The notes under the pieces are model-generated. The model did no database searches. It saw nothing but the letters and a program-made list of their open reading frames with translations, and was not told where the DNA came from. From positions 192,001-256,000 of the forward strand of contig CAVQSP010000017.1 of assembly GCA_963715985.1 (NCBI GenBank): a stretch of 64,000 bases of DNA. The letters are read 5' to 3'. Within the stretch, counting starts at the first letter, position 1; each line of letters opens with the position of its first letter. Made by a program: the position numbers and the translations under genes. Source of the DNA: an uncultured Thermoleophilia bacterium. GTDB lineage: Bacteria; Actinomycetota; Thermoleophilia; UBA2241. Shown here piece by piece: positions 1 to 16,475 of the stretch.

Positions 1-59
1 CCCATCAGATCCGCGAACTGCTCCGCGTCGAGGCCGCCCAAGCCTGGTTTGTCGCTCAT
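1..59 (-). CDS. 5' end of a gene running off the left edge (MSDKPGLGGLDAEQFADLM...), product unknown
   Basis: ATG at 59-57 preceded by a GAAGGGAG RBS; GC3-biased frame open to the window edge. Confidence 0.6.
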   Translation of the reverse strand, partial: MSDKPGLGGLDAEQFADLM

Positions 60-170
60 CGATCGGCTCCCTTCGGTCTGTGTGTCGAGGTCGTACCCAC
101 ATACTCACCCGGACGCATCGTGTCACGCCGTTGACGCGGACACCGGAGGTGTCTGCCGGGCCGGCGGAAC

Positions 171-201
171 GGCGCGGGGCGGCCTGAGGCCGCCCCGCGC
201 C
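171..201. terminator. GC-rich hairpin, probable terminator of the 254..709 gene
   Basis: GGCGCGGGGCGGCC-TGA-GGCCGCCCCGCGCC, perfect 14-bp stem. Confidence 0.6.
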
Positions 202-253
202 TGCCGTCTCGTTCAGGCGCGGCCGGTCGCGGACTCGCGCCGGCGGTCGTGGC

Positions 254-709
254 TCAGCGGCCCCGTCGCCGCGAGCGCCGGTTCATGCCGGCCAGCGACA
301 CCGGCGAAAGCGGCCGACCGAACGGGTCGATGAACACGGAGACGAGTTCGCCCTTGGGCGGCAGCGTGCCTTCCAGCATCTCTACCGTGTACGTGAGCGA
401 GTCGCCCTCGATCTGCGGGTCCTTGAGCACGACGATGGCGTCCTCGGGGGTCTCGTCGCCCTTCTCCACGAAGGAGATCACGGCGTTCGGCGGGTCTACG
501 GCGAAGCTGTTCTCGCCGAGGCCCCACTCCTCCACGAACTTCTTCGTGGTGAGGTGGCCGACCACACGCTGCGGGCGGTCGGAGAAATAGAGGGTGGCGG
601 GCGAGAGGCCGTGGAACGTCACTTTGTCGCCGTCGGTGGTGAGCTCGCGCGCGGTCTGCGCGAACAGGGCCTCGATGTCTTCGAGGGTCTTCTCGATGTC
701 GTCGGTCAT
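254..709 (-). CDS. Conserved hypothetical protein (LFAQTA...YFSDRP...DPPNA family), Arg-rich C-terminus
   Basis: ATG at 709 with GAAGGAG RBS (track ORF 254..784 starts too early); strong coding bias. Confidence 0.8.
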   Translation of the reverse strand: MTDDIEKTLEDIEALFAQTARELTTDGDKVTFHGLSPATLYFSDRPQRVVGHLTTKKFVEEWGLGENSFAVDPPNAVISFVEKGDETPEDAIVVLKDPQIEGDSLTYTVEMLEGTLPPKGELVSVFIDPFGRPLSPVSLAGMNRRSRRRGR

Positions 710-786
710 GGTGCTCCTTCTGCCTGCTTGGCGTGAGTAGGTCGTGGTCGTCGGCAGCACGCGATACGTATCAGCGGGCCGCACGA

Positions 787-802
787 GTTACCAGCGGGTC
801 AT
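787..802. promoter_or_regulatory. Shared operator-like box, copy 1 (GTTACC-AGCG-GGTCAT)
   Basis: Matches boxes at 6290-6305 and 15872-15887; 78 bp upstream of the start at 709. Confidence 0.5.
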
Positions 803-1015
803 GTCCCTATTGTGCTCCGTGCGCGGTCGTTGTGAAACTCAGGGCACGGACGCAGTGCGGCCGGCGGCGAGGGAGCGGGAGGGACAATTGACGTGCACCG
901 TCGACGAGGGCCTCAGCGAGAGCGCCAAATCAGGTAACGTTGGCGCAGATGCTCCACCTGAGAGGTCCACGGAGACATGCCGCCCCAGAGGACGGCGACG
1001 GCGAGGGGAGAAGCG

Positions 1016-3778
1016 ATGGCAACGACAGGCCAGGGTCCGGCGGACACGGGAGGAGACGGCGCGCGCTGGTGGGCGCTCTCGAGCGATGATGCCGCCGCCA
1101 AGCTCGGCGTCGACCCCGCCGCCGGCCTCACGGCGGCGAAGGCCGCCGAGCTGCTCAAGCAGAACGGGCCCAACGCCCTTCCCGAAGAGAAGGGCGCGCC
1201 GGGCTGGAAGCGCTTCCTCGACCAGTACCGCGCCTACATGCAGATCATCCTGCTCATCGCGGCCGTCGTTTCGTTCGCCATCGGCCAGTGGAGCACCGGT
1301 GCGGTGCTGGTGGGCCTCACGGTGTTCAACGCCGTCGTCGGCCTCCGTCAGGAGGGCAAGGCCGAGAGCGCCATGAACGCGCTCAAGTCACTGATGAAGC
1401 TGACGGCGCGCGTGCGGCGCGACGGGGCAGAGGCGGAGATCCCGGCCGAGGAGGTCGTGGTCGGCGACGTCGTGCTGATCAGCGCCGGCGACAGCGTGCC
1501 GGCCGACGGCCGGATCATCCAGGCGAGCTCGCTCGACATCGACGAGTCCGCGCTCACCGGGGAGAGCGTGCCGGCGTCGAAGGAGACGGACCCGCTCGCC
1601 GACACCGATCTCGGCCCCGGCGACCGTCACAACATGGCGTTCATGAACACGCCGGTCACGCACGGCAGCGGCATGATGCTGGTGACGGCGACGGGCGCCG
1701 ACGCGGAAGTCGGCAAGATCGCCGGCATGCTGGCGGCGACCACCAAGGAGCAGACGCCGCTCACCAAGCAGCTGAACACGATGACGCTGTGGATCGGCGC
1801 CGCCGCGCTGGGGACGATGATCGTCATGTTCGCGCTCGGCCTCTCCCGGGGCCAGTCGGCCGACAGCCTGTTCATCACGGCCATCGCTCTGGCGATCGCG
1901 GCCATCCCGACGGCGCTGCCCACCGTCCTCCAGGTGATCCTCTCCGCCGGCGCCAAGGAGCTCGCCGCGCAGAAGGCCATCGTCAAGGACCTCGTGTCGG
2001 TGGAGACGCTCGGGTCCACGTCGGCCATCAACTCCGACAAGACCGGCACGCTGACGATGAACCAGATGACGGCCGTCGAGCTCGTCGACGCCGTCGACCG
2101 CTACACGATCTCCGGGATCGGCTACGGCCTCGAGGGCAAGATCCAGCACGCGGCCGGCACCACCGCGTCCATGGACGAGGCGGTGCTCCCGTACGTCATC
2201 GCCAGCGACGCCAAGCTCGAAGACGGCAAGGTCGTCGGCGACCCGACCGAGGGCGCCCTGCTCGTCCTCGGGCACAAGGCAGGCCTGGACATCGACGCCA
2301 GCCGGGAGAGGTTCCCACGTCTGGCCACGCTGCCGTTCGACCCTACGTACAAGCTCATGGCGACCTTCAACTCCGCCACCGACTCGTCGGGCAAGGACGT
2401 GGTCCGTTGCTTCGTCAAGGGAGCGGCGCCCGCTGTGATGAGCCACACCACGAGCGCTCTCGCCGGCGGCGCCATCATGCCTCTGGACGACGAGCTCAAG
2501 AAGAAGGGGGAGGCCGCCATCACCCGCATGGAGGGCGAGGGGCACCGTGTGATGGCGGCCGCCATCCGCGACCTCGACCCGGCGGCGTTCGACGCCGAAG
2601 GCGATCTGCTGAGCTACGTCACCGAGCTCCAGCTGACGTCCATCGTCGCCATGGTCGACCCGCCCCGCGAGGAGTCCAAGGCGGCCGTGCGCGACGCCCA
2701 GCGCGCCCACATCACGGTGCGCATGGTCACCGGCGACGACGTCACGACGGGGGCGGCCATCGCCAAGCAGCTCGGCATCCCCGGCGAGGCGATGCTGGGG
2801 ACCGAGTTCGCCGCGCTGAGCGCGGAGGAGCGACTGGCCCGCATCGACGACATCGGCGTGGTCGGCCGCGTGGCTCCCGAGCACAAGGTGCTCCTCGTCG
2901 AGACGCTGAGGAAGAAGGGCCACGTGGTCGCCATGACCGGGGACGGCGTCAACGATGCCCCGGCCATCAAGGCGGCGGACATCGGCATCGCCATGGGCAC
3001 CGGCACCGAGGTGGCCAAGAACGCCGGCCGCATGATCCTCTCGGACGACAACTTCGCCACCATCGTGCGCGCGGTCGAGAAGGGCCGCGCAGTCTACGAC
3101 AACCTCAACAAGTTCATCCGCTTCGTGATGCTCGAGCTCGCGGCCTACATCATGACCTTCCTCGGGGCCAGCATCCTCAACATCGCCGCCGGGCAGCCGT
3201 TCTCCGCCTCCCAGATCCTCTACATCAACTTCCTCGTCAACGCACCACTCGGCATCGCCCTGGGCATGGACAAGGAGGCGCCGGGGCTCATGGAGCAGGT
3301 GCCGCGGTCGCGCGACGCGTCGATCATGACCAAGGGCCTGCTGGTCACCGCCGGCCTCGTCGGCCTGTTCATGGCCGTGTGCACGCTCTGGCTGATCAGC
3401 TACGGCACGGCCCACTACGGCAAGGTCGAGATCGGCTCCTCGATGGGCCTGACTGCGTTCTCGCTGCTCATCGTGGCCTCCGCCTTCCAGGCGCGCAGCG
3501 TGACCGGCACGGCGCTGACGACCGCGACGTTCGACAACCGGCACCTGAACTGGACGGTGCTCGCGGAGCTCGTGCTCGCCGTGCTCATCACGCAGATGGA
3601 CGTGCTGCGGCGGATCTTCGGGACCGTGGAGCTGACGGCCACGCAGTGGGCGCTGGCGGCGGTGCCCGCCGTGGCGCTCTTCTTCCTCTGGGAGCTCGGC
3701 AAGCGGATCGCGGGCGGCGGGGCCGGCCACTCGCAAGAGGCCGTGGCGGCGAAGGCACCCGAGAAGGCCGCCGCGTAA
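1016..3778 (+). CDS. Cation-transporting P-type ATPase (type IIA-like, HAD-IC)
   Basis: TGES, DKTGTLT, KGA, MVTGD and GDGVNDAPA motifs; multiple TM segments; GAGGGGAG RBS before ATG 1016. Confidence 0.95.
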   Translation: MATTGQGPADTGGDGARWWALSSDDAAAKLGVDPAAGLTAAKAAELLKQNGPNALPEEKGAPGWKRFLDQYRAYMQIILLIAAVVSFAIGQWSTGAVLVGLTVFNAVVGLRQEGKAESAMNALKSLMKLTARVRRDGAEAEIPAEEVVVGDVVLISAGDSVPADGRIIQASSLDIDESALTGESVPASKETDPLADTDLGPGDRHNMAFMNTPVTHGSGMMLVTATGADAEVGKIAGMLAATTKEQTPLTKQLNTMTLWIGAAALGTMIVMFALGLSRGQSADSLFITAIALAIAAIPTALPTVLQVILSAGAKELAAQKAIVKDLVSVETLGSTSAINSDKTGTLTMNQMTAVELVDAVDRYTISGIGYGLEGKIQHAAGTTASMDEAVLPYVIASDAKLEDGKVVGDPTEGALLVLGHKAGLDIDASRERFPRLATLPFDPTYKLMATFNSATDSSGKDVVRCFVKGAAPAVMSHTTSALAGGAIMPLDDELKKKGEAAITRMEGEGHRVMAAAIRDLDPAAFDAEGDLLSYVTELQLTSIVAMVDPPREESKAAVRDAQRAHITVRMVTGDDVTTGAAIAKQLGIPGEAMLGTEFAALSAEERLARIDDIGVVGRVAPEHKVLLVETLRKKGHVVAMTGDGVNDAPAIKAADIGIAMGTGTEVAKNAGRMILSDDNFATIVRAVEKGRAVYDNLNKFIRFVMLELAAYIMTFLGASILNIAAGQPFSASQILYINFLVNAPLGIALGMDKEAPGLMEQVPRSRDASIMTKGLLVTAGLVGLFMAVCTLWLISYGTAHYGKVEIGSSMGLTAFSLLIVASAFQARSVTGTALTTATFDNRHLNWTVLAELVLAVLITQMDVLRRIFGTVELTATQWALAAVPAVALFFLWELGKRIAGGGAGHSQEAVAAKAPEKAAA

Positions 3779-3794
3779 GTGCTGAACGAGACGA

Positions 3795-3827
3795 GGGGCG
3801 GGGTGGCGCTGCGCGCCACCCCGCCCC
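3795..3827. terminator. Hairpin between convergent ATPase and sulfatase genes
   Basis: GGGGCGGGGTGGCGC-TGC-GCGCCACCCCGCCCC, perfect stem. Confidence 0.7.
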
Positions 3828-3857
3828 CGTGCCGTGCGGAGGCTCTCTCCGTCCGGC

Positions 3858-6209
3858 CTACTGGCGCGCCATGTGCATGCGCAGCTCGGCCTCGGGGTCG
3901 TGGATCAGCTCGCCGCTCACGTCGACGGTCACCTCGTGGAGCGTGCCGGTGAACTTGAACGGACTGGGGTAGTCCGGCGTGACCGGGGAGCCTGGGTTGG
4001 CGCCGCAGGTGAGGGCGCCGGGGTTGAGCATGAAGGGCGTCGTCGTCGGAGCTTCGGCGTTGGCGACCAGGGCGCCGTCGACGTAGAGCTGCAGCAGTCC
4101 CGGTGCGCCTTTGCCGTGGGGCAGGTCCGGCTGTCCGGTCGGCTCGAACTCGAAGCGCAGGTCGTGCTTGCCGGCCGGCAGAGCTTCGTCCGAAGCCACC
4201 GAGTAGAGGGCGCGGCCCACCCAGTTGTGCACGTAGGTGAGCTTGCCGTCCTTCACGTAGAGCGAGTAGCCGCCCGCGGCGCAGCCCTGGCAGAGCAGCA
4301 CGCCTTCGGCGCCCTCCTCTGGGATCTCGACGTTCGCGGTGATGCTGTGCGGGCGGTTCATCAGCCGCGGTGCCGCGAAGAACGGCACCGACTGCGTCCC
4401 GGGCCGGTAGGTGTAGCTCTCCCGGGGTACGGCCACCAGGGGTTTCTCGCCCATCACGCGCGCGAGGCCGCTGCCGTCGACCGGCATGACCTCGTACTTG
4501 CCGGCCTCCACGTACCAGGTCGCGATGAGCGCGATGAGCTTGTCGCGGTTCTCCTCCGCCACGTTGTGGTTCTCGGCGAAGTCCTCGTCGGTGTGGTAGA
4601 GCTCCCAGCCCTTGGCGTCGAGCTCCGAGAGCTTCTCCGCCGAGATCGGCTGTCCGAAGCCGACGCCGGCCTCGGCGAACGACGGGCCCGGCCAGGGGCA
4701 GACCGCCCGCCAGCCGTCGTGGTAGATGGCGCGGTGGCCGAGCATCTCGAAGTACTGGGTATGGTGCTTACTGTCGGCGGCGCCGTCGTCCAGCGCGTGC
4801 GCGAAGCTGACGCCCTGGAGCGGCGACTGCGTGACTCCCTTGATGGTCGCCGGCGGCTCCAGGTCGAGCAGGTCGAGGACGGTCGGCACCATGTCGATGA
4901 TGTGCGCGTACTGGTTCCGCACCTCGCCGCTGGCCTTGATCCCCGCGGGCCAGGAGACGATGAACGGGTCGCAGGCGCCGCCGCGGTAGGTCTCGCGCTT
5001 CCAGCGCCGGAACGGCGTGTTGCCGGCATTGGTCCAGCCCCAGGGGTAGTGGTTGAAGTGCCTGGGGCCGCCGATCTCGTCGATGACCGCGAGGCTCTCC
5101 TCGAGCGGCTCCTGGGCGTTGTTGAAGAACTGTGCCTCGTTGGTCGTCCCGGTGGGGCCGCCCTCGGCGCTGGCGCCGTTGTCGGAGATCACCATGACGA
5201 TGGTGTTCTCGAGCAGGCCCTGGGCGCGCAGGTAGTCGAGCAGGCGTCCGAGGTGGTGGTCGGTGTGGCTGAGGAAGCCGGCGAAGACCTCCATCATGCG
5301 GCTGTAGAGCTTGCGCGCCTCAGCGGGCAGCGAGTCCCAGTCGGGGACGTCGGGGTCGTGGCGCGAGAGCTCGGCGTCCGCCGGCACGATGCCCAGTTCC
5401 TTCTGGCGCGCGAAGGTCCTCTCGCGGTAGGCGTCCCAGCCGTCGTCGAACTGGCCCGCGTACTTGTCGGCCCACTCCTTGGGGGCGTGGTGTGGCGCGT
5501 GTGTGGCCCCGAAGCAGAGGTGCAGGTAGAAGGGCTTGTCGGGGTCGATCTGCCTCGCGTCGGCGATGAACTCGATCGACTTGTCGATGAGGTCGGGGGT
5601 GAGGTGGTAGCCCTCCTCGGGGGTCGCCGGCGGCTCCACCTGGTGGTTGTCGTAGACAAGGTCGGGATACCACTGGCTCGTGTCGCCGCCGAGGAAGCCG
5701 TAGAAGCGCTCGAAGCCGCGGGCCAAAGGCCAGCGGTCGTAGGGACCGGCCGCGGTCTCCTGGTTGCTCGGCGTGAGGTGCCACTTGCCGACCATGTAGG
5801 TGTTGTAGCCCTGCTCCAGCAGCATCTCCGAGAGCATGCCGTTCTCGAGCGGGATGATGCCGTTGTACCCGGGGTAGCCGGTGGCGAACTCGGTGATGCA
5901 GGCCATGCCGTTGCTGTGGTGATTGCGCCCGGTGACGATACAGGAGCGGCTCGGCGAGCAGAGCGCCGTGGTGTGCATGTTGTTGAAGCGCAGGCCCTGG
6001 GCGGCGAGCGCGTCGAAGTTCGGCGTCTCGATCGGGCTGCCGTAGCAGCCCAGGTTGCCGAAGCCGGTGTCGTCAAGGACGACGAAGAGCACGTTGGGGG
6101 TGCCCTTCTTGGCGCGGATCGGCGCCGGCCAGGCCTCGCTCGATTCGTCGGTGGTGCGGCCGATCACCCCCGGGAACGCTGCGCCTTCGGGATACTCTAC
6201 TAACGCCAT
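3858..6209 (-). CDS. Arylsulfatase (Cys-type, formylglycine-dependent, AtsA-like), no signal peptide
   Basis: PNVLFVVLDD, CSPSR...TGR, GKWHL and SDNGAS motifs. Confidence 0.95.
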   Translation of the reverse strand: MALVEYPEGAAFPGVIGRTTDESSEAWPAPIRAKKGTPNVLFVVLDDTGFGNLGCYGSPIETPNFDALAAQGLRFNNMHTTALCSPSRSCIVTGRNHHSNGMACITEFATGYPGYNGIIPLENGMLSEMLLEQGYNTYMVGKWHLTPSNQETAAGPYDRWPLARGFERFYGFLGGDTSQWYPDLVYDNHQVEPPATPEEGYHLTPDLIDKSIEFIADARQIDPDKPFYLHLCFGATHAPHHAPKEWADKYAGQFDDGWDAYRERTFARQKELGIVPADAELSRHDPDVPDWDSLPAEARKLYSRMMEVFAGFLSHTDHHLGRLLDYLRAQGLLENTIVMVISDNGASAEGGPTGTTNEAQFFNNAQEPLEESLAVIDEIGGPRHFNHYPWGWTNAGNTPFRRWKRETYRGGACDPFIVSWPAGIKASGEVRNQYAHIIDMVPTVLDLLDLEPPATIKGVTQSPLQGVSFAHALDDGAADSKHHTQYFEMLGHRAIYHDGWRAVCPWPGPSFAEAGVGFGQPISAEKLSELDAKGWELYHTDEDFAENHNVAEENRDKLIALIATWYVEAGKYEVMPVDGSGLARVMGEKPLVAVPRESYTYRPGTQSVPFFAAPRLMNRPHSITANVEIPEEGAEGVLLCQGCAAGGYSLYVKDGKLTYVHNWVGRALYSVASDEALPAGKHDLRFEFEPTGQPDLPHGKGAPGLLQLYVDGALVANAEAPTTTPFMLNPGALTCGANPGSPVTPDYPSPFKFTGTLHEVTVDVSGELIHDPEAELRMHMARQ

Positions 6210-6289
6210 CGTGACCTCCGCAGTCGTTGGGATCTGGGCTCACGGACCGAGCGCTGCGCTGCCGTCGCGCCTGCGCGTCCTTCTGCACC

Positions 6290-6325
6290 GTGACCGGATG
6301 GTAACGCATTGTCAGGAGTCTGACA
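6290..6325. promoter_or_regulatory. Shared box copy 2 (6290-6305) plus adjacent palindrome TGTCAG-GAGT-CTGACA (6310-6325, candidate TetR operator)
   Basis: Inverted repeats in the divergent sulfatase/tetR intergenic region. Confidence 0.55.
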
Positions 6326-6412
6326 CGCGCGGGATCTCGGGGGCCGCTTCGGCGCACCGGGGCCGTCGCACTTGTCCGCACGCGAATCGGTTAGGGTTGC
6401 GCCTACGGACTG

Positions 6413-7078
6413 ATGACGCTTGACAGAACCGGGGCCGGAATGACGAGCGACCAGCAAGGACATCGCGGGCGCGAGGCCACCGTTGCGGCCATCATGGATG
6501 CGGCGGAAGGACTGTTCTCGGCGCAGGGCTTCACCGCCGTCACCGTCCGCGCCATCGCGGTGCGTGCCGGCGTCTCTCATGCCCTCGTGCACCGCTACCT
6601 CGGCAGCAAGTCGGAGATCTATCGCGCAGTCTTGAAGCGTGACGAGGAAGCGATCCTGCAGGCTGCGGCCGACGATGACGACCTCCTCACAAGCGCGAGT
6701 CTGATGTTCCGTGCAGCCGTCACGGTGCAGCGCCGGTACGTCCGTCTCATCGCGCATTCCGCACTGCACGGCCTTTCGTACGACCGCACCTCCGGCAGGT
6801 TTGCGGCGACCGAGCGGCTCATCGAGCTTGCGGAGCGCGCGGTCGCGTCGGCGTCGCCGAAGGAGCGTGCAGAGAAAGACCTCGATCCCCGCCTCGTCAT
6901 CGCCGCAGTCGTGGCGCTCCTCCTCGGGTGGACGGCGACCGAGTCCTGGGTGCGCCCTGCGGCAGGCATCCAGGACATGGACGAGGCCGAGGTCGAGCAA
7001 GGACTCGAGCGCGTGGTTCGCGGCATCCTCAGCGGCAACGTGCCGGGTCTCGGCGGCGAACGCTCCCCGGCGGGCTGA
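6413..7078 (+). CDS. TetR/AcrR family transcriptional regulator (start may be 6440)
   Basis: N-terminal HTH: AAEGLFSAQGFTAVTVRAIAVRAGVSHALVHRYLGSK. Confidence 0.9.
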   Translation: MTLDRTGAGMTSDQQGHRGREATVAAIMDAAEGLFSAQGFTAVTVRAIAVRAGVSHALVHRYLGSKSEIYRAVLKRDEEAILQAAADDDDLLTSASLMFRAAVTVQRRYVRLIAHSALHGLSYDRTSGRFAATERLIELAERAVASASPKERAEKDLDPRLVIAAVVALLLGWTATESWVRPAAGIQDMDEAEVEQGLERVVRGILSGNVPGLGGERSPAG

Positions 7079-7146
7079 CCCCAGCCGCTACTTCCCGCGC
7101 GTGCGCAGCGTGCCTGCGGAGGCTCGACGCGCCGACGCCTCGACTC

Positions 7147-7824
7147 TCACCGCTGTCCACCGCGCGTACGCAGCGGGCCGATGCGCCCCTGCGCCGCAGC
7201 GGCTCCGCTCTCGCCCCCGCCGGCACCCCTGAGGACGTAGGCGAAGCCGACGGCGATCAGCGCCCCCGCGATCGGCCCCACCACGTAGGGCCAGTAGTGG
7301 GAGAAGTCGAGCAGCGCCATGTCGGGGCCGAAGGAGCGCGCCGGGTTCATCGAGGCGCCGCTGATGGGGCTCGACCAGAGCCCGGCGAGGATGATGTAGC
7401 CGCCCACCCCGAGGGCCCCGAAGACGCCCACGTTCTGGGCCCCGGAGGCGGTGCCGAGGATCGTGCTCACGAGGCCGACCGTGAGTATCAGTTCCATGAG
7501 CATCGCCTGCATGTTGCTGATGCCCGGGCCGGGCTCGGTGGCGCCGAGCATGCCGATCTTGCCCAGCACCGCCCATAGAAAGAGGCAGGCCAAGGTGGCG
7601 CCCAAGAGCTGGACGATGACGTAGCCGGGCACGCGCCGCCAGGGGAAGTCGCCGCGCGCGGCGAACGCGATGCTCACCGCGGGGTTGAGGTGCGCGCCCG
7701 AGACGGCGCCCATGAAGAGGATGATGGCCATCACCATGAGGCCCGGCGCGGTGACTGCGGCGGCGCGGCTGATGGCGCCGTCGGACTGCGCGTTCACAAC
7801 GGCTCCCCCGGCCCCGACGAGCAC
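7147..7824 (-). CDS. MIP/aquaporin family channel, copy 1, N-terminally truncated
   Basis: SGAHLNPAVS and SGASMNPARS NPA motifs; upstream frame has a degenerate EPRRLLNELDTLFLV but no start before the stop at 7888-7890. Confidence 0.85.
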   Translation of the reverse strand: MLVGAGGAVVNAQSDGAISRAAAVTAPGLMVMAIILFMGAVSGAHLNPAVSIAFAARGDFPWRRVPGYVIVQLLGATLACLFLWAVLGKIGMLGATEPGPGISNMQAMLMELILTVGLVSTILGTASGAQNVGVFGALGVGGYIILAGLWSSPISGASMNPARSFGPDMALLDFSHYWPYVVGPIAGALIAVGFAYVLRGAGGGESGAAAAQGRIGPLRTRGGQR

Positions 7825-7887
7825 GAGGAAGAGCGTATCCAGCTCGTTGAGGAGCCGCCTCGGCTCACACGTGCCGGTGTCGCAGCC

Positions 7888-7945
7888 TCACGCCTCGGCC
7901 ATCTCCTTGTCCAGCCCCTTGGCGTGGGCCTTCAGCTCCGTTGCG
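7888..7945 (-). pseudogene. 3' remnant of a DUF1269-family gene
   Basis: Encodes ELKAHAKGLDKEMAEA*, resembling the C-terminus of 9002..9511 (DAKELDKQLAEAEKEMAEA*). Confidence 0.5.
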
Positions 7946-7949
7946 ACCC

Positions 7950-8869
7950 TCACACAAGCTTCTTGTCGGAGTCTGCGATGGCCGTAGGCTCCGCTTCGCC
8001 GTGGTCGATCTCGTACGCGAGCTTCTTGGTCTTCTCGAGGTCGCCGGGTCCCAGGACGCCGGATCCGGCGGCGCGACCGATGAGGCCGCCGCCGCGCCCG
8101 CGGAGGACGTAGGCGCAGCCGACGGCGATCAGGGCACCGGCGATCGGACCGACGACGTAGACCCAGTAGCTGCGAGACGTCCAGCACCGCCATGTCCGGA
8201 CCGAACGAGCGCGCGGGGTTCATCGAGGCGCCGCTGACGGGGCCGCCCAAAGGCCGGCGAGCGCGATGTACCCGCCGACACCGATCGCCGCCGATGGCGC
8301 CGACGTTCTGTGCCGCCGGACGCCGTGCCGAGGATCACGCTCACCAGCCCGAAGGTGAGGACGACCTCCATGAGGAGCGCCTGCCTGTTCACGTAACCGG
8401 GGCCGGGAAGCGGTCGCGCCGAGCATGCCGACGTTGCCGAAGCACGGCGTAGAGGAAGAGGCAGGACGAGCGTGGCTCCGAGGAGCTGAAGGATGATGTA
8501 GCCGGGGACCCGCTCCATGGGAAGTCACCGCGCAGCGGCGAAGGCGAGCGAGACAGCGGGGTTGAGGTGAGCGCCCGAGACGGCGCCCATGAAGAGGATG
8601 ATCGCCATGACCATGAGGCCCGGCGCCGTGACCGCGGCGGCGCGGCTGATAGCGCCGTCGGACTGCGCGTTCACAACGGCCCCCCCGGCCCCCACGAGCA
8701 CGAGGAAGAAGGTGCCCAGGAGCTCGCAGAAGAGCCGCCGCCACTCGTGTCTGGGATCGTCGAAGTCGCCCGCCGCGCCGAACTCGAGCTCAAGCAGACG
8801 GTGCCGCCGGCGCTCCAGCGCAGGCGGGACATCCACGTCAGCGCCGGGCCTGGTCTCCTGCTCTTCCAT
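7950..8869 (-). pseudogene. MIP/aquaporin copy 2 with several frameshifts (decay or sequencing error)
   Basis: EWRRLFCELLGTFFLV, HLNPAVS and SMNPARS lie in different frames; near-identical to 7680-7830; tail LEKTKKLAYEIDHG...DKKLV*. Confidence 0.8.
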
Positions 8870-8936
8870 GGCCCCGCCTCCTGTCCATCGGCCTCGCCGC
8901 CGTGATCAGCGCGTACAAGGCCTCCCCTTCAACGCG

Positions 8937-8970
8937 GAGGCCCGCGGGTCCTTTCGGACGCGCGGGCCTC
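8937..8970. terminator. Hairpin downstream of the DUF1269 gene
   Basis: GAGGCCCGCG...CGCGGGCCTC stem. Confidence 0.5.
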
Positions 8971-9001
8971 TGCGACCGCTGACTCGTGGCGCCGTAGCGC
9001 C

Positions 9002-9511
9002 TCAGGCCTCGGCCATCTCCTTCTCCGCCTCGGCCAGCTGCTTGTCCAGCTCCTTGGCGTCGACCTTGATCTCCTTCTCCATCTGCTTCTCGGCCTTGAG
9101 CTCGGCCTTCATCAGCTGCTCGTCGAGCTTGTCGCGGCCGATGACGATGAGGGCGGCCTCGCCCTCGTCCAGCATCTCGCCGAGCTCCTTGACGTCCTTG
9201 CGCGACATGCCCCGCCAGAAGTGCCCGATGAGGCCGCCGGCCACGCCGCCCACGAGGGCGGTGCCGATGATGGAGGGCGGGAACAGCACGCCGATGACGG
9301 CGCCCACGGCGATGCCTGTCCAGGCGCCGTGCTGCGTGGGCTTCTCCCACTTGGTGACGTGGACGCCCTTCTCGTCTTTGGTGGCCACGGCGGCGTCGTA
9401 GGTACCGATGACCTTGGCGGCGTGCAGGTCGCGCACGACCTCGAGGTCCTCGCGCGCGAGGGCTGGGTCGCTGTAGACGCCGACGAACAGGAACGCGGAC
9501 TGGTCTGCCAT
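9002..9511 (-). CDS. DUF1269 family protein with glycine-zipper segment
   Basis: DAAVATKDEKG, GAWTGIAVGAVIGVLFPP...GGLIG and LDEGEAALIV; AAGGAG RBS. Confidence 0.85.
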   Translation of the reverse strand: MADQSAFLFVGVYSDPALAREDLEVVRDLHAAKVIGTYDAAVATKDEKGVHVTKWEKPTQHGAWTGIAVGAVIGVLFPPSIIGTALVGGVAGGLIGHFWRGMSRKDVKELGEMLDEGEAALIVIGRDKLDEQLMKAELKAEKQMEKEIKVDAKELDKQLAEAEKEMAEA

Positions 9512-9565
9512 GCTGACTCCTTGGGTGGGTTGGCGGTGAGAACGGTGCGGCGGCCGGTGCCGCCT

Positions 9566-10970
9566 TCAGATCCCGGCCTCGGCCGGTATCTTGCCCAGCT
9601 CGATGGCTTTCAGAACGGCGGCGTGGTCCTTCTCGGCCTGGTTCGCATAGGCCTCTGGGCGAAGTCCGCGATGGCCTGGTCGAAGCGGTCGCTGACGCCC
9701 AGGTACGAGGCGATGGCGATGCGCCGCCCGGAGCGGGCGTGCCCGCGGGCCAGCGTCCAGCCGCAGAGCGTCGCCAGGACTTCGAGGCCGGCGGGCCTGA
9801 GGATCGCGGTATCGATGGAGCCCTTCATGTCTCGCAGCTGGCGCCAGTAGAAGTGGCGCCCCTCCGGCTGGCCGGTCATCCAGCCCAGGAAGATGTCGCT
9901 GGCCGCCTGCATGAGGCGCTGTCCGGCCACCACGCGGTGGCCTGCATGCGTGAAGCGGCTCCTGCCCAGGTACGGCTCGAGGACCGACGGCCCGGCCTCC
10001 TTGACCTGCAGGAACAGCGGGTCGTCGACGTCGCGTCCGAGCAGCAGCCCGATGATGCAGCGCGTGCCCACGCTGCCCACGCCGACGACCTTGCGGGCGA
10101 CGTCGACGATGTCGTAGCGATCGATGAGCGTGCGCCGGTCGTCCGCCAGCGTGCGCTTGTACTGCTCGAACAGGGCGTGGATGCGTTCGGCGTCCTGGAG
10201 CTCCTCGAAGTGCATCACGAGCGGTGGCTGATCCACGATGCGCCGCACCCCGTCCACGACCTCCGTCAGCTTGCCGGCGGCCTGGAGGCTGTCGCGGCCG
10301 CGAGTCTTGGCGAGCGTCTTCTGCGCGGTCTTGATCCGGGTCTTGGTGTCGGCCTTGGCCCCCCCTTCGGCGCCCAGCGTCTTGCGCGCCATCTCCAGGA
10401 GGTCGTCGGCCACCACGCGGGAGTACCACACGTCGAGCTCGCGCATCTCGGCGTAGGCGGTCATGTGCTCGCGGTAGGAGCGTACCGACGCAAGCGCGGT
10501 CTCGCGGGCGACGTCCTGGTCAAAGCCGTTCTCGCGGCTCGCCAGCACGAAGCTGGCGGCGAGCCGCTTCAGGTCCCACTCGAACGGGCCCGGCAGCGTC
10601 TCGTCGAAGTCGTTGACGTCGAAGAGCAGCTCGCGCTCCGGCGACCCGTACAGGCCGAAGTTGGCGAGGTGCGCGTCGCCGCACAGCTGGACCTGCAGAC
10701 CGGTCCGCGGCATCGGCGCCAGATCCGCGGCCATGAGTGCTGCCGAGCCGCGGTAGAACGTGAACGGAGAGGCCGACATGCGCCCCCAGCGGATGGGGAC
10801 AAGGTCGGCCATGCGGCCTCGTCTTGCGCCCTCAGGAGCGCGATCGGGTCGGGCCGGTCCGGCGCCGGCTTCCAGTCGCCGTGCGACGTGCGGGGGGCCG
10901 TCTTGCGCGCCTGTCTCCCCGCCGCCTGCCGCTCGACGGTGCTGTCGTGCGCCCACTTCTGCGTGGTCAT
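9566..10970 (-). CDS. DUF2252 family protein (kinase-like fold), two frameshifts (about 10817 and 9655)
   Basis: RMSASPFTFYRGSA, CGDAHLANFG, DVNDFDE, KVVGVGSVGTR and RQLRDMKGS; N-terminus MTTQKW... and C-terminus ...EAGI* are in other frames. Confidence 0.9.
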
Positions 10971-11007
10971 TGCGGGACTCCTTGTACGGTGGTCGGGAGG
11001 GCCGGCG

Positions 11008-13368
11008 TCATTCCCTGGCCAGCATGGCCTGGGCCTGGCGCTCCAGGTCCAGGTACGGCTCGCCGCTGACGTCCACGGCGACGCGCTTGATCGTGCCGCC
11101 GGTGAAGCTGTGCGGCGACGCGCCGGGGTAGTCGTCGGTGACGGCCTCGCCGCTGTCGCGACCCACGCACAGGCCCTCGCCGGCCAGCGAGAAGTAGCCC
11201 GGCTGGGTCTTGATGCGACCCTCGCCGACCTTCTTGTCGCCGTGGTACAGCGAGAGCATGCCGGTGGCGACGCCGGGCGGGTCCTCGCCGTCCTTGTCGA
11301 ACGCTGCCGAGAGGATGAGGTCCTCGCCGGTCGGCAGGTCCTCGGTCGCGTCGACCTTCTGCTCGAAGATGCCGACGAAGCTGTTGACGTAGTGCAGCCT
11401 GTCGTCCTTGACGTAGAGGGCGTGCCCGCCGAAGCGGGCGCCGTGCGCGAACAGCACACCCTCGGCGCCGGCGGCCGGGATGTCGACGAGTGCTCCGATC
11501 GCGAAGGAGCGGTTGCGGATGTTGACGGCTTGCTGCTCCGGCACGTCGGCGGTGCCGGGGAAGTACGTGTACCGGTCGCGTGGCGGCGCGAGCGCGGGCC
11601 GCGGCGTCAGGATGATCTCCAGCGGTGAGCGGTCGTCGAGCGGGAAGGCGCCGTTCCTGCCGGCCTCGGCGAACCACAGGCTCTGGAGCTCCCTCAGCTT
11701 GGCCCAGTTCTCCTTGGCGAGGTCGTGCATCTCGGAACGGTCGACGTCGACGTGGTACAGCTCCCACTCGTCGTCGTTGAAGTGGCTCCACCCGGCGATG
11801 GTCGGGTGCGTGGTCACGGCCTTCCAGCCCTCGTGCCAGATGCCGCGAGAACCCAGCATCGAGTAGAACTGCGTCGTGCGGGCACCGTCGGCCTTGGCGT
11901 CGTCGAAGGCATAGCGCATGCTCACGCCGTCGAAGGCGCTCTGCACGTGCCCCTTGATGGTCGCCGGGCTTTTCACGCCGAGGCAGTCGAGCACGGTCGG
12001 GACGACGTCGATCGCGTGGTGATACTGCTCCCTGATCTCACCCCTGGCCTTCATGCCCGCCGGCCACGACATGATGCAGGGGTCGGCGGTGCCGCCGTTG
12101 AACTCGTAGCGCTTCCACATCTTGAACGGCGTGTTGAAGGCCATCGCCCAGCCGTTGGTGTAGTGGTTGTAGGTCTTGGGGCCGCCGAGCTCGTCGAGCA
12201 TCTTCAGGTTGGTCTCGAGGTCGTCGGGGATGCCGTTGAAGAAGAGGTTCTCGTTGACCGACCCGTCCGGGCCGCCCTCGCCGCTGGCGCCGTTGTCCGA
12301 CACGAGGATCACGAGCGTGTTCTCCCGCAGGCCCGCCCACTCGAGATAGTCGAGCAGGACTCCGATGTAGTGGTCGGTGTGGGCGAGGAAGCCGGCGTAC
12401 ACCTCGGCCATGCGCGCGAAGAGCCGCTTCTCGCCGTCCGAGAGCGTGTCCCACGGCTTTGTCACGTCGAGCAGCGGGAACGGCTTGTCGCCGGGTCCCT
12501 TGCGCGTCTCGCTCGTTCCGATGGGATTGAGAGGCGGAAGCTCGGTCTCCGGCGGGACGAGGCCCATCTCCTTCTGGCGGGCGAGGGTCTGCTCGCGCAT
12601 CGCCTCGTAGCCCATGTCGAACTGGCCCTTGAACCTGTCGATCCACTCTCGTGGGCGCGTGATGCGGCGCGTGGCAGGCGCCCGGGCGCGTAGTAGAGGA
12701 AGAAGGGCTTGTCCGGGGCGATCGCCTTGGCGTCCTTGATGAACTCGAGCGCCTTCTCGGTGAGGTCCTCGGTGAGGTGGTAGCCCTCCTCCGGTGACTT
12801 CGGCGGGTCGACCGGATGGTTGTCGTAGACCAGGTCGGGATACCACTGGTTGCTCTCGGCGCCGAGGAAGCCGTACCAGCGCTCGAAGCCGCGCCCGGAC
12901 GGCCAGTTGCGGCGCGGCGCCGCCAGGTTCATCTCGTCGGTGGGGCACAGGTGCCACTTGCCGACCATGTACGTGTTCCAGCCCAGCTCGCCGAGGATCT
13001 CGGGCAGCATGCCGTTCTCGGGGGGGATCGTGCCACTGGCGTTGGGGAACCCGACGGCCGCCTCGGTGATGCACGCCATCGAGTTGCGCGTGTGGTTGCG
13101 GCCGGTGAGCAGGCACGAGCGCGTCGGCGAGCAGAGCGCCGTGGTGTGCCACTGCGTGTAGCGCACGCCGTCGGCGGCGATCTTGTCGATGTTGGGCGTG
13201 GGGATCGGGCCGCCGTAGCAGCTACATCGCCGAGAAGCCGACGTCGTCGAGCACGATGTAGACGACGTTGGGCGCCCCGTCCGGCGCCTTCGGCGGCTCG
13301 AACGGCGCCCAGTCCGGCGTCGAGTCGCGGATGTCGACGTTGATGACTCCCTTGAATGGTTCGCTCAT
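11008..13368 (-). CDS. Arylsulfatase, second paralog, frameshifted (about 13224 and 12650-12685)
   Basis: MSEPFKGVINVDIRDS...PNVVYIVLDDVGF, CSPTR, GKWHL and SDNGASGEGG are split over three frames; GAGGAG upstream. Confidence 0.9.
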
Positions 13369-13494
13369 GCCTCGTCACTCCTCGTGGTCTCGTGTGGAGA
13401 TGCCCTGGGGGCGGTGCGGCTGCAGTCGTGCCCGCTAGGCTACAGCCTCCGTGTTCGGTTCGTGTTGCCGTCGGCGTTGCACCGATACGCCGGA

Positions 13495-14823
13495 TCAGGT
13501 CTGCGGGGGGTCGGCCGCAGCGCCTGCGGAGGACGTGCTGCGCGCCGCCTGCCGGGCGCTCACGCGGCGCTGCACAAGCGGCAGGGCGATCATCACCGTG
13601 GCCACGGCCAGCACGATGAGCGCGACGAGCGTCGCGCCGGCATCGAGCATGAAGGCCGTGAGCAGCACGACCATGAGCGGCGTGCGGAACAGCGCGTACA
13701 CCGCGCCGCTCATCACGCCGGCCACGAGGATCGTGACCGGCATGCCGGGGAAGACGAGGTTGAGGGCCAGCGCCACGCTGGTCGAGGCGAAGATGAGCGG
13801 GAAGGTCGGCCCGCCGAGGAACCCGCTCTTGAACCCCACCGCGAGCAGCGCCAGCTTGCCGACCGCCATCACGAGCAGGACGGCGATGCCGTATCCGGCG
13901 GCGCCGTCGATGACCGTGTGCACCTGGGTCTCGCCCGAGAACATGACGACGGGGGCGAGCACGCCCACCACGCTGAAGACCACGCCGGCCACGAGCGCTC
14001 GCAGCACGATCCGGTCCTTGAGGCGCGCGAAGAACCGCTCGGAGGCCTTCATGAACAGCGCCGTGAGCAGCGCGAGCACCAGGCCCAGGAGGGCGAGCGG
14101 CACCATGACGACAGCGTCGAGGAGACGGTAGCTCGAGACCGGCGGCAGGTGCAGGAAGTTGACGAAGCCGGTCTCGTGCAACAGCAGGAAGACGGCGTAG
14201 CCGACGCCGCCGCCGATGAGGCTGGCGGGCAGGGTCGCGAGCCCCTTCTGCTTCGTCTCCGCGACCTCCGCGCCCAGCACGGCGGCGAAGACCGGGTTCT
14301 CCAGCAGCCCGTTGTAGCCCGAGGCCACGCTGCCGAAGATGAGCTTGGGCCGCTGCTCGGCCGGGATCCGGAACAGGTCGCAGTACATGGCCGCGACCTT
14401 GCTGGCGATGTTGCCGATGGCGCCCTCCGGGCCCAGCACGGCGCCCGAGAACAGCGAGGCGAGCGACTGCGCCACCGTCGCCGGCAGGTCCTTCCACTTC
14501 AGGCGAGTGACGTCACCGGTGAGGCTGTCGAGGATGGACCCGTCCAGGTTGCTCGGCGCCTTGGCGTACTTGACGAGCAGGCCGACCAGCAGGGAGAAGG
14601 GCAGGCAGATGAGCGGGAACATCCAGGCGTGGGCCGTGACGAAGCCGTTGTCCCAGATGAGCTTGTTGAGGGCTTCGTAGACGACGAACCAGGCGAGCAC
14701 GCCGAAGCCCCCGATGAGCGACACCGCCACGACGTGCAGGTAGATGCCGCGAGGTTCCGGCCGCTCGGTGGGTGACGCGGCTTGAGCCTGGGGTGGCGCT
14801 GTCTGCGGCGGATCGGCGCTCAC
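13495..14823 (-). CDS. Chloride channel (ClC) family protein, YfeO-like
   Basis: Many TM helices; LGPEGA and GFLGGPTFP motifs; GAAGGAG RBS before GTG. Confidence 0.85.
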   Translation of the reverse strand: MSADPPQTAPPQAQAASPTERPEPRGIYLHVVAVSLIGGFGVLAWFVVYEALNKLIWDNGFVTAHAWMFPLICLPFSLLVGLLVKYAKAPSNLDGSILDSLTGDVTRLKWKDLPATVAQSLASLFSGAVLGPEGAIGNIASKVAAMYCDLFRIPAEQRPKLIFGSVASGYNGLLENPVFAAVLGAEVAETKQKGLATLPASLIGGGVGYAVFLLLHETGFVNFLHLPPVSSYRLLDAVVMVPLALLGLVLALLTALFMKASERFFARLKDRIVLRALVAGVVFSVVGVLAPVVMFSGETQVHTVIDGAAGYGIAVLLVMAVGKLALLAVGFKSGFLGGPTFPLIFASTSVALALNLVFPGMPVTILVAGVMSGAVYALFRTPLMVVLLTAFMLDAGATLVALIVLAVATVMIALPLVQRRVSARQAARSTSSAGAAADPPQT

Positions 14824-14876
14824 GCAGCGGTCACGCTCCTTCCCGCGTACCGGTCAGGGCCGCGTCGGACACAGAA

Positions 14877-14906
14877 ACGGCGGGCGGCGTCTCCGCCGCC
14901 CGCCGT
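14877..14906 (-). terminator. Intrinsic terminator-like hairpin after the SHOCT-DUF6325 genes
   Basis: ACGGCGGGCGGCG-TCTC-CGCCGCCCGCCGT followed by a T-rich tract on the minus strand. Confidence 0.65.
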
Positions 14907-14947
14907 GTTCTTCCCGCCTGCGGGTCCTGCGAATCTCCCGGTCAGGC

Positions 14948-15450
14948 TCAGTCGTCGAGCGCCAGCCCGATCTCGGCGCCGACCGCCAGCAGGTCCTGCG
15001 GGTGCAGCCACTTGTCGGCCAGCAGCACGCCGCCGGCGTCGCCCAGGGCGTCCCTGAGCGGGATGGCCCAGCGGTGCTCGAGCACGGCGATGGCCGCCGT
15101 GAACCCCTCGGGGATCGCATCGGCGATGTACCAGACTTCCTCTTCGTCGTAGAGGTCGCCTCGACGGCCGCCTCGGCGCCGACCTCGGCGCCGACCTCGG
15201 CGCCTTCCTCACCGGCCGCGCCGAAGCCGACCAGCGCGCCCGCGAAGGCCCCGAGCTTGGCCATCTCGTCGATGTCCTCGACCTCGACCTTCTCGAAGGT
15301 GCCATCGTCGTTCTTGTGGATCAGCAGGAGGTCGACCACGCGGACCACGTCGTGCTCGCGGAGCTTCCTCAGCTCCTCGAGACCTCTGCCCTTGAACTCT
15401 GCCTCAGGGCCGAAGCCCACCACCAGGATCTGGATCGGACCCAGTGCCAT
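14948..15450 (-). CDS. DUF6325/DUF1269-like protein, frameshift at about 15160
   Basis: GPIQILVVGF...VRVVDLLLIHKNDDG; after the shift AVLEHRWAIPLRDAL...LDD*; one G missing in a G-run. Confidence 0.8.
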
Positions 15451-15476
15451 CGCGTACTCCTTTCAGCAGGTCCGGC

Positions 15477-15791
15477 TCAGCCGCCCTGCAGCGCCTTCTG
15501 CTTGGCGGCCTCGAACTCCTCCGGCGAGAGCACGCCTGCGTCCATGAGGCCTTTGAGCTGGGTGAGCTGGTCGGCGATGCTCGTTCCGCCTGCCGCCGCG
15601 ACCGGGGCCGCCGCCGCAGGGGCCGGCGCCTGCTGCTGGTACTGCTGCTGCTGTTGCTGCGCCTGCAGGTCGGCGATCTGCGCGTTCTGATCGGCCTCCT
15701 GCTGCGACGCCTGGGCGCCCTTCTTGCCCACGTGGTAGGCGGCCCCGCCGATCACAGCGGCGCCCAACAGCGGCCTTCTCCTCATCATCAT
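15477..15791 (-). CDS. SHOCT domain-containing protein
   Basis: C-terminal QLTQLKGLMDAGVLSPEEFEAAKQKAL; Q/P/A-rich linker; GGGAGG RBS. Confidence 0.9.
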   Translation of the reverse strand: MMMRRRPLLGAAVIGGAAYHVGKKGAQASQQEADQNAQIADLQAQQQQQQYQQQAPAPAAAAPVAAAGGTSIADQLTQLKGLMDAGVLSPEEFEAAKQKALQGG

Positions 15792-15848
15792 GGTGACTGC
15801 CTCCCGGTGTAAGTGGTGGTCCCCTCCAGGGACTCGCTCCTGAGGCCC

Positions 15849-15887
15849 ACTATACCCTGCGCACGGGACTCGTCACCATCCGGTAAC
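15849..15887 (-). promoter_or_regulatory. Promoter of the SHOCT unit: -10 TATAGT with shared box copy 3 overlapping the -35 position
   Basis: ACTATA at 15849-15854 (TATAGT on minus), 17-bp spacer, GTCACC-ATCC-GGTAAC at 15872-15887. Confidence 0.55.
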
Positions 15888-16042
15888 CGGGGCTCCCTGC
15901 CGGCTGGACCGAGGCCCTCCGCAGTCGTCTGCCCCGGCCTGTGAAGAGAGGGTTCGGGCGGCCTCCCTCACCGGCGCCGAGGCCGCGTGATTCGCCGGGA
16001 CGCCCCGTGGGCACCACCCGGGCAACGACCGGGAGGCGACAC

Positions 16043-16435
16043 ATGGACCTGAAGAAGAGCTACTTCATCGGCGCGCCGCCCGAGGACGTGTGGCGCGCCC
16101 TCACCGACCCGGCCGTCATCGACGCCTGGGGCGGCGGCCCGGCCGAGATGAGCGCCGAGCCGGGCACGTCGTTCTCGCTCTGGGGCGGCGACATCCACGG
16201 CACCGTGACGGCTGCCGAGGCGCCCGTGCGCCTGGTGCAGGACTGGTGGGGCGGACCCGACTGGAAGACGCCCTCAGTGGTCACCTTCGAGCTCGAGTCC
16301 GAGGGCGACGGCACCGTGCTCACGCTCACGCACACCGGGGTGCCCGACGACGTGGCCGGGGACTTCGACGCGGGCTGGGACGACTACTACCTGGGGCCGC
16401 TGAAGGACCTGCTCGAGAGCGCCCGCCCGGCCTGA
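16043..16435 (+). CDS. SRPBCC/AHSA1 domain protein
   Basis: APPEDVWRALTDP...VQDW...LTHTGVP...GWDDYY; GGGAGG RBS. Confidence 0.9.
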   Translation: MDLKKSYFIGAPPEDVWRALTDPAVIDAWGGGPAEMSAEPGTSFSLWGGDIHGTVTAAEAPVRLVQDWWGGPDWKTPSVVTFELESEGDGTVLTLTHTGVPDDVAGDFDAGWDDYYLGPLKDLLESARPA

Positions 16436-16475
16436 GGCCGCCGGCCGCGGCCCGGCGCTACGGCTCGGAAGACCC

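Follow-up and report, generated by a model that had tools for sequence, protein, structure and literature searches.

A shared palindromic box marks an island of small gene modules, with a candidate TetR-family repressor, in an uncultured Thermoleophilia bacterium

The first 16 kb of a 64,000-nt window from an uncultured Thermoleophilia bacterium (the window being the whole stretch analysed, with position 1 at C17:192001 of contig CAVQSP010000017.1, here C17) carry sulfatase, ClC, aquaporin, P-type ATPase, SHOCT, DUF6325, DUF1269 and DUF2252 genes together with a gene for a TetR-family regulator. A common 16-bp palindromic box, GTNACC-N4-GGTNAC, is present in the promoter regions of the transcription units and, because the box sites cluster here and recur at the same families in relatives, the 16-kb stretch is the right half of a co-regulated island of ~36 kb (~C17:172-208 kb) that carries six boxes, three in the window and three just to its left. 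It is suggested, with moderate confidence, that the island is an operator-defined regulon of several small modules which the TetR-family protein represses and which serves in stress adjustment. The evidence fits such a regulon and not the one coupled pathway that an initial annotation of this DNA had proposed.

The shared box in this genome and its relatives

The palindrome came out of a comparison of intergenic regions and of the sequences that precede SHOCT genes in relatives. The assembly consists of 22 contigs and 4.35 Mb, with a completeness of 88.8% and a contamination of 7.3%. In window coordinates, the boxes and the elements beside them are:

787-802, minus strand: box B, ATGACCCGCTGGTAAC, one mismatch to the palindrome; between the gene for a 151-residue protein and the P-type ATPase gene
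6290-6305, plus strand: box C, GTGACCGGATGGTAAC, in the gap that separates sulfatase 1 from TetR; 108 nt ahead of the TetR gene
6310-6325, plus strand: a second, perfect palindrome, TGTCAGGAGTCTGACA, 4 nt past box C; unique in the window
14877-14906, minus strand: 13-bp GC hairpin with a T-containing tail (terminator-like scan), between DUF6325 and ClC
15849-15876, minus strand: predicted sigma-70-like promoter of the SHOCT unit (GTGACG, 16 nt, TATAGT)
15872-15887, minus strand: box D, GTTACCGGATGGTGAC, 81-96 nt upstream of the SHOCT start

The exact sequence GTKACCGGATGGTRAC has two copies in the genome, both in the window (6290-6305 and 15872-15887). Allowing at most one mismatch to GTKACCNNNTGGTRAC gives six distinct sites genome-wide (seven strand-matches) against one in the reversed genome, and four of the six, including window 787-802, lie within 23 kb (C17:184707-207872). 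The form GTNACC-N4-GGTNAC is matched exactly at seven genome sites, five of them within 33.8 kb, which adds C17:174054 and C17:182242; the chance of such clustering is bounded at ~6e-6 (scan bound). Half-sites with other spacers give 2-13 matches genome-wide, and it is therefore the clustering and the position of the sites that are special, not their total count. The clustered sites are all intergenic, and their flanks are mutually unlike, so that the boxes are not copies of a repeat. Another candidate for the shared box, GCAGTCGT, was rejected at chance level (5 found, 3.9 expected).

Boxes stand at five island promoters besides that of TetR, 80-110 nt upstream of start codons, where they overlap predicted -35 or transcription-start positions. 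The predicted -35 element of the SHOCT promoter overlaps the last 5 nt of box D, and box B lies just downstream of the predicted sigma-70-like promoter (836-809) of the 151-residue protein gene, after its -10 element. Box D may be shared by a divergent AHSA1-fold gene, and the hairpin at 14877-14906 may end or attenuate the SHOCT-DUF6325 transcript. A single GGTAAC half-site in window 925-941, 36-41 nt upstream of the P-type ATPase start, falls short of a full box and carries no significance by itself.

Nine genus relatives have these families too, gathered within 30-55 kb and with the gene order shuffled; the island is thus kept, in shuffled order, in one genus of uncultured Thermoleophilia. 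The island regions of the relatives (436 kb) hold 31 exact boxes against none in the control, and 29 of the 31 are intergenic, where the non-coding share is 20% of the sequence. These boxes precede TetR/sulfatase pairs, SHOCT-DUF6325, PLD, the 151-residue protein gene (an orthologue of box B, in G016), DUF1269, DUF7144 and AI-2E. A box lies between the TetR and sulfatase genes in G013, G016 and L042 and beside TetR at the end of locus L030; in G004 one stands upstream of the sulfatase 1 orthologue, with no TetR labelled there. Upstream of SHOCT/DUF6325 it is found in G004 (two boxes), G011, L032, L040, L041 and L043. The most regular sub-module consists of TetR, box, sulfatase and DUF2252 and/or the 151-residue protein (G016, G006/L039, L042), and a similar arrangement is seen in G013, L095, L035 and L038. 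The shared upstream box and the co-regulation on which the initial annotation had relied are therefore borne out, the palindrome being present in the promoters of the locus and upstream of orthologous genes in relatives.

The candidate regulator and a different palindrome in distant lineages

From its position and its co-occurrence with the box, the island's TetR is most likely the repressor that acts through it. The protein matches PF00440 (1.2e-13) and has orthologues 52-76% identical in relatives; its matches among solved structures were only to uncharacterised TetRs (E~1e-7). Repressors of the TetR/TetA and QacR type stand divergent from their target and bind a palindromic operator. Here, likewise, a TetR_N gene is divergent from its putative target, with a 16-bp inverted repeat in the shared region that overlaps promoter elements. 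Unlike in those pairs, the putative operator is found at six or more promoters over 34 kb, in front of unrelated modules, which argues for a local regulon and not a single pair. With a stricter pattern, 41 genomes of the genus gave 42 strand-matches against one for the backwards pattern, with a match in 24 of the 41. A TetR homologue (E<=1e-20) is present in 27; TetR and strict box occur together in 21 genomes, the box only in three, TetR only in six and neither in 11, counts that come from kin and are not independent. The ~200 nt upstream of the TetR gene contain a strict box in six genomes (this one, G000, and G002, G013, G032, G040 and G048).

Distant loci (L044-L108, from actinobacterial metagenome-assembled genomes) are without the box and carry ATCAYCC-N5-GGRTGAT (motif 2) instead, with 185 sites at <=2 mismatches in 1.38 Mb against nine in the control. 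Motif 2 precedes DUF7144, SHOCT/DUF6325, LPG-synthase TM, SHOCT fusions, DUF1269 and ClC genes, and also sulfatase, NDH-2, G6PD, GH15 and the gene of a PAS-LuxR regulator, which is a candidate regulator of this second regulon; the regulon includes cytochrome bd. In four complete genomes motif 2 is dispersed (7, 0, 11 and 1 sites, with none in the control), and the genome studied here shows a weak enrichment (26 against 6 at <=2 mismatches), with no site in the island. Sister lineages thus hold a differently controlled counterpart of the same gene set. A LuxR-AAA gene of this genome (contig C13:643805-644336) has a box-like sequence, GTCACCAGACGGTGAC, 40 nt upstream, with a motif-2-like site 500 nt away; both control systems may therefore meet there.

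An alternative is that the box serves a different factor, either another regulator of the island or a global one, or that it is a promoter element specific to the lineage; TetR would then control the divergent sulfatase only, perhaps through the palindrome at 6310-6325. A second perfect palindrome does stand beside box C, and three genomes have strict boxes and no detected TetR homologue. Moreover, the same families are found in distant lineages under another palindrome, which also precedes the PAS-LuxR gene itself, so that non-TetR control of the gene set exists. However, the box is conserved in relatives, whereas TGTCAGGAGTCTGACA had no counterpart apparent by eye in the relatives' intergenic regions, where no pattern search was made. 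TetR operators are usually 16-bp, 6-4-6 inverted repeats in the upstream region of the TetR gene itself, and the box has this usual form; the three genomes with boxes only are, in addition, 76-96% complete. Control by another factor is accordingly judged rather unlikely, and repression by TetR is retained as the working model.

The gene map, its proteins and the integrity of the frames

Genes were picked by third-position G+C (GC3; window G+C ~70%) and then scanned against Pfam and NCBIfam, and the gene list of the initial annotation holds by all three. The map of the right half of the island is:

254-709, minus strand: 151-residue protein with an FSDRP motif; reading frame open to 784, homologues 150-152 residues
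977-3778, plus strand: P2-type ATPase (Pfam)
3858-6209, minus strand: sulfatase 1, 783 residues (PF00884)
6413-7078, plus strand: TetR (PF00440, TetR_N)
7147-7824, minus strand: MIP1, aquaporin family (PF00230)
7888-8869, minus strand: MIP2, full-length paralogue of MIP1; reads in three frames
9002-9511, minus strand: DUF1269 protein with a glycine zipper (PF06897)
~9566-10970, minus strand: DUF2252, kinase-like (PF10009); both ends out of frame
11008-13365, minus strand: sulfatase 2, paralogue of sulfatase 1; broken frames
13495-14823, minus strand: ClC-family anion channel or transporter (PF00654)
14948-15450, minus strand: DUF6325; frame shift near 15160, intact orthologues 167 residues
15477-15791, minus strand: small SHOCT protein (PF09851)
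15941-16435, plus strand: AHSA1/SRPBCC-fold protein, divergent from SHOCT (PF08327, 7.9e-24)

The AHSA1-fold gene adjoins ClC in relative G015 too. The locus runs ~20 kb further left of window position 1, where transport genes (SulP, an AI-2E transporter, K+ channels, TMEM175 and NhaP) are found together with SfLAP, DUF1269, a B12 radical-SAM protein, rhodanese, Ppx, a second TetR and a PLD-type (cardiolipin-synthase-like) enzyme. One unit there consists of a box, a small membrane protein, a DUF6325-like protein, an Ion_trans channel and NhaP.

The 151-residue protein matches no Pfam, NCBIfam or named Atlas cluster, and its 2510 homologues are all unnamed or 'hypothetical'. Its AF2 model is all-beta (mean pLDDT 73.6) and, searched against the PDB with Foldseek, gave nothing at E<=0.001, the best rows being viral beta-domains with TM-scores of ~0.3. 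In relatives its gene adjoins a sulfatase or DUF2252 gene. The P-type ATPase has E1-E2_ATPase, Cation_ATPase_N and Cation_ATPase_C domains, carries DKTGT, and has IPTALP at the position where Ca-ATPases carry IPEGLP. It falls below all NCBIfam equivalog cut-offs, those of the SERCA, PMR1 and PMCA subfamilies included (512 vs 798 bits for the best, PMR1-type, model, then 501 vs 703 and 403 vs 507), and only the general P-type model passes; on these matches it is classed as a P2-type cation ATPase not assignable to the SERCA, PMR1 or PMCA subfamily. A 46-nt inverted repeat (171-216 and 3782-3827), each arm comprising CTGAACGAGAC and a GC-rich hairpin, sits just 3' of the 151-residue protein gene and of the ATPase gene, and may be the scar of an inversion or insertion that placed the ATPase between sulfatase 1 and the 151-residue protein gene.

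The two sulfatases are paralogues, with a DNA identity of 73-80% over long stretches. Sulfatase 1 matches PF00884 over positions 1-300 of 301 (2.6e-71) with the Cys-type motif CSPSR, and sulfatase 2 has CSPTR when read across its frame breaks. A further ~270 residues are present at the sulfatase C-terminus, where a Laminin_G_3 match is weak and below cut-off. By inspection of the first ~40 residues, with no predictor, the two sulfatases are without a leader of the hydrophobic or twin-arginine type, in agreement with the initial annotation. The nearest solved relative of sulfatase 1 is the Pseudomonas arylsulfatase 1HDH (E 2.4e-71, residues 37-507). A radical-SAM sulfatase maturase (anSME, TIGR03942) scores 398 bits, above cut-off, at C17:111814-112922; it lies 80 kb from the island, and the assembly splits it over two frames. 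A search for FGE (PF03781) found none in this genome at its 88.8% completeness.

MIP1 (PF00230, 1.8e-39, from profile position 30) and MIP2 form a tandem duplication of ~875 bp (repeat families D2, D7, D10, D11 and D15), in which MIP1 is the 5'-truncated copy and is without the first ~35 codons; this 5' loss is real and lies at the duplication junction. The 3' end of MIP2 (7888-7940) repeats the last ~50 nt of DUF1269 (9005-9074) with 82-86% identity, and the duplication unit is therefore 'end of DUF1269 plus MIP'. The DUF1269 protein matches PF06897 (7.8e-10) and a Gly-zipper model, and is homologous to DUF6325 (hhalign 98.1%, E 1.2e-13, 141 columns); one DUF6325 orthologue also matches PF06897 weakly. 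The DUF6325 copy here is under the Pfam cut-off (20.4 vs 23.4 bits), and intact orthologues are above it. A preprint (10.1101/2024.07.07.602159) assigns to DUF1269 a ferredoxin-like fold in which a glycine zipper is embedded. DUF2252 matches PF10009 (2e-136) and no solved structure at E<=0.01. ClC (PF00654, 3.3e-22) is the sole copy found in the genome. The SHOCT protein (PF09851, 4.5e-08) has an N-terminal RRRPL-hydrophobic segment and a Q/P/A-rich linker before its SHOCT domain, and its gene lies upstream of DUF6325 on the same strand, with a gap of 26 nt. The domain was defined in PMC3581485, and PMC11237479 proposes SHOCT-like domains as inner-leaflet membrane anchors in envelope-stress systems. 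A complex prediction for DUF6325 (A4) with SHOCT (A3) scored 0.00, which speaks neither for nor against binding. In the full-text literature DUF2252 and DUF1269 are each mentioned in five papers, none of them on function, and DUF6325 in none, supplementary tables being outside the search.

Several of these genes are broken in the assembly. Sulfatase 2 is spread over three frames by 1-nt insertions at ~13222, ~12682 and ~12650, and the extra base is missing in 5/6, 6/6 and 6/6 relatives at these positions. DUF2252 shifts frame near 9657 and 10817, with alternative frames that give proper termini. The broken genes were first read as pseudogenes, a reading dropped given the private indels of relatives and the frame-restoring environmental contigs. 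It would make the segment a decaying duplication, with sulfatase 2, MIP2, DUF6325 and DUF2252 true pseudogenes and the locus no longer working. At least eight frame breaks do fall in 7.9-15.5 kb, with the P-type ATPase, sulfatase 1, a GT4 gene and a 1594-residue protein gene of the window intact, and MIP1 is truncated through the tandem duplication. However, the relatives' assemblies each have their own private 1-nt indels in conserved genes (P-type ATPase, ClC, sulfatase), and GC3 stays high over the broken genes, at 0.84-0.90. Environmental contigs from four independent runs, 93-100% alike, restore the frame in 4/4 runs at 13224 (without 1 nt, 64-100% of the depth there) and at 10817 (+T), and in 1-4 runs at 15160 (+T, 2/4, in DUF6325), 12686/7, 12652, 9657 (-2 nt, 1/4) and 8318. 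At the last of these, in MIP2, one contig lacks 1 nt; contig depth is very low over 7800-8570, so that these contigs are little informative on MIP2. Because relatives show private indels and environmental contigs restore the frame, the 1-nt frameshifts in sulfatase 2, MIP2, DUF6325 and DUF2252 are private to this assembly and probably consensus errors, and true decay of the locus is highly improbable.

Further right in the window, two more DUF1269 genes stand in tandem on the minus strand (38382-38891 and 38937-39530, in region 37760-39530); the pair adjoins a 203-residue reading frame without a family and lies near a K+ channel gene (42049-42789), and this region yielded no box. At 43045-50533 a DUF459/SGNH esterase-like gene is paired with an MBOAT acyltransferase gene three times in tandem, and a TauE-family exporter lies beyond these pairs at 52639-53733.

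Recurrent neighbourhoods and the role of the regulon

To place the gene set more widely, 80 loci in actinobacterial metagenome-assembled genomes were anchored on DUF6325 (alignment A1), and the 1225 proteins called within a 10-kb range were clustered without bias. SHOCT is directly upstream of DUF6325 on the same strand in at least 58 of the 80 loci (tblastn), often with ClC next. The other neighbours are DUF7144 (27 loci), a holin-like/phosphodiesterase fusion (18), sulfatase (17), MFS and LPG-synthase TM (16 each), ClC and LuxR-AAA (15 each), DUF1269 (13), DUF2252 (12), PLDc_N-SHOCT and GH15 (11 each) and NDH-2 (10), followed by PLD, SulP, NhaP, bestrophin-like proteins, cytochrome bd, G6PD and K+ channels in fewer than ten loci each. 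Each family has 0-8 copies per genome of 2.6-4.4 Mb: this genome has five sulfatases, four DUF2252 genes, one ClC and, by query, three DUF1269 regions (one being the tandem pair at 38.4-39.5 kb, with the copy of the left extension missed), and four complete genomes have 2-8 sulfatase-domain matches and 0, 0, 4 and 0 copies of DUF2252. These low copy numbers put co-localisation several-fold to tens-fold over a uniform expectation, an estimate that is rough as the loci are related. The recurrent co-localisation of sulfatase, ClC, DUF1269 and DUF2252 for which the initial annotation had called is thus present.

The initial annotation went further and joined the genes in a single system: the hydrolysis of esters in the cytoplasm would be coupled to the flow of anions, cations and solutes, and the kinase-like DUF2252 would control a DUF1269/DUF6325/SHOCT membrane complex with a glycine zipper. 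The recurrence of the families well over copy-number expectation, the shared operator, which is real, and the near-obligate pairing of SHOCT with DUF6325 speak for it. Nevertheless, apart from SHOCT no family is found with DUF6325 in more than ~1/3 of the loci, and there is no constant pair besides SHOCT-DUF6325. Composition and gene order vary between genomes, even within one genus, and coupling in one machine is not supported. DUF2252 mostly adjoins sulfatase and not DUF1269, DUF6325 or SHOCT, and three of the four complete genomes, all with SHOCT-DUF6325, are those without DUF2252. Such a single system is therefore considered very unlikely.

The sulfatases lead to another alternative, a regulon for the use of sulfur or sulfate esters in which a sulfated compound, or what is formed from it, would be sensed by TetR. 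The core would consist of the leaderless AtsA-like sulfatases, for whose maturation the genome has a radical-SAM enzyme, together with SulP, SfLAP and rhodanese, and the channels and DUF proteins would be secondary passengers. The TetR-box-sulfatase-DUF2252/151-residue arrangement is the most regular sub-module, anSME is above cut-off where FGE was not found, and the island contains SulP, SfLAP and rhodanese. P. aeruginosa AtsA is leaderless and under the control of the sulfate-starvation response. Sulfatase 1, whose nearest solved relative is this enzyme (1HDH), resembles it in its Cys-type CxPxR motif and the absence of a leader, and a special meaning of cytoplasmic sulfatases is not supported. 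In contrast to AtsA, the sulfatases here have ~270 extra C-terminal residues and a radical-SAM maturase in the genome, with FGE not found, and their regulation is TetR-linked and not that of sulfate starvation. Furthermore, sulfatase accompanies SHOCT-DUF6325 in 17 of the 80 loci only, there are boxes in front of PLD, DUF1269, DUF7144, AI-2E and channel operons as well, and no organosulfate transporter was identified in the locus. The maturase lies 80 kb off, with no box of either pattern within ~60 kb of it. A sulfur regulon is a possible but somewhat unlikely reading.

Comparison with known stress systems gives partial likenesses. As in the DosR dormancy regulon of mycobacteria and the sigma-B general stress regulon of Bacillus, transporters, membrane proteins and many small, functionally uncharacterised proteins stand under one cis element, to which the companion regulon of the distant lineages adds NDH-2, cytochrome bd, G6PD and GH15. 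Unlike in DosR, other palindromes are used and no universal stress proteins are in the locus. The DosR-like core GGGAC-N4-GTCCC is not enriched (32 matches at <=2 mismatches against 81 expected), with no listed match in the intergenic regions of the locus, and a DosR-like identity was dropped. In enterobacterial glutamate-dependent acid resistance, too, ClC is found among stress genes, and a pyridoxal-phosphate-dependent decarboxylase is present in nine of the 80 related loci. However, neither decarboxylase nor antiporter is found in window 1-16500 or in the left 20 kb, and ClC here matches the YfeO-type model PRK03655 weakly (44.7 vs a 312-bit cut-off); an acid-resistance identity is not upheld in the absence of a decarboxylase from the locus. 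The Psp/Lia envelope-stress systems (PMC11237479) have SHOCT-type bihelical domains on small membrane-proximal proteins near transporters and regulators, as here; unlike in them, Pfam scans of the locus gave no PspA, PspC, LiaF or Toastrack, for which no dedicated search was made.

In the favoured reading, the TetR-family protein would bind the island operators as a dimer and repress their units until a ligand releases it. The units so controlled would be SfLAP with the divergent DUF1269 gene; the PLD or cardiolipin-synthase-like gene; the small membrane protein, DUF6325-like protein, K+ channel and NhaP; the 151-residue protein and perhaps the P-type ATPase; sulfatase 1 and TetR itself; and SHOCT and DUF6325, with possible read-through to ClC, sulfatase 2, DUF2252, DUF1269 and the MIP genes. 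SHOCT and the DUF6325/DUF1269 proteins would act at the inner face of the membrane and, judging from gene content, the joint task of the products would be to adjust the balance of ions, water and membrane lipids during stress of an envelope, osmotic or ionic kind.

Several points weigh against this model. The position and co-occurrence on which the assignment of TetR is based also track the mere presence of the island among kin genomes, and the island holds at least one further TetR, with a PadR regulator nearby. The P-type ATPase start is 175 nt from box B, which makes its control uncertain. In this genome none of the ClC, sulfatase 2, DUF2252, DUF1269 and MIP units is preceded by its own box, and the long minus-strand run is tied in solely by an assumed read-through past the hairpin. 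Finally, the stress theme derives from family names, and sulfatase, SulP, SfLAP and rhodanese would fit sulfur equally. The PadR gene is at window 18157-18723.

A bolder proposal is that SHOCT and the DUF6325/DUF1269-type proteins form a new membrane-proximal partner module of ion channels, in an ancient actinobacterial regulon for ion and envelope stress that was rewired in this genus from a LuxR-type palindrome (motif 2) to a TetR-type one. Two parallel units of the island each consist of a box, a small membrane protein, a DUF6325-type protein and a channel; the channel is ClC, at the end of the unit, in one of them, and a K+ channel with NhaP after it in the other. This proposal is given a low probability.

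The operator ties little-studied families to channels, lipid enzymes and sulfatases, and so provides a concrete regulon with a candidate regulator and defined promoters, through which the inducing condition, and then the functions, become testable in a lineage that is common in soils and wetlands but uncultured. The 151-residue protein family, with more than 2500 members that are all unnamed, gains a handle through the regulon, and the contrast between sister lineages, which have different palindromes at one and the same set of genes, offers a usable case of regulon rewiring.

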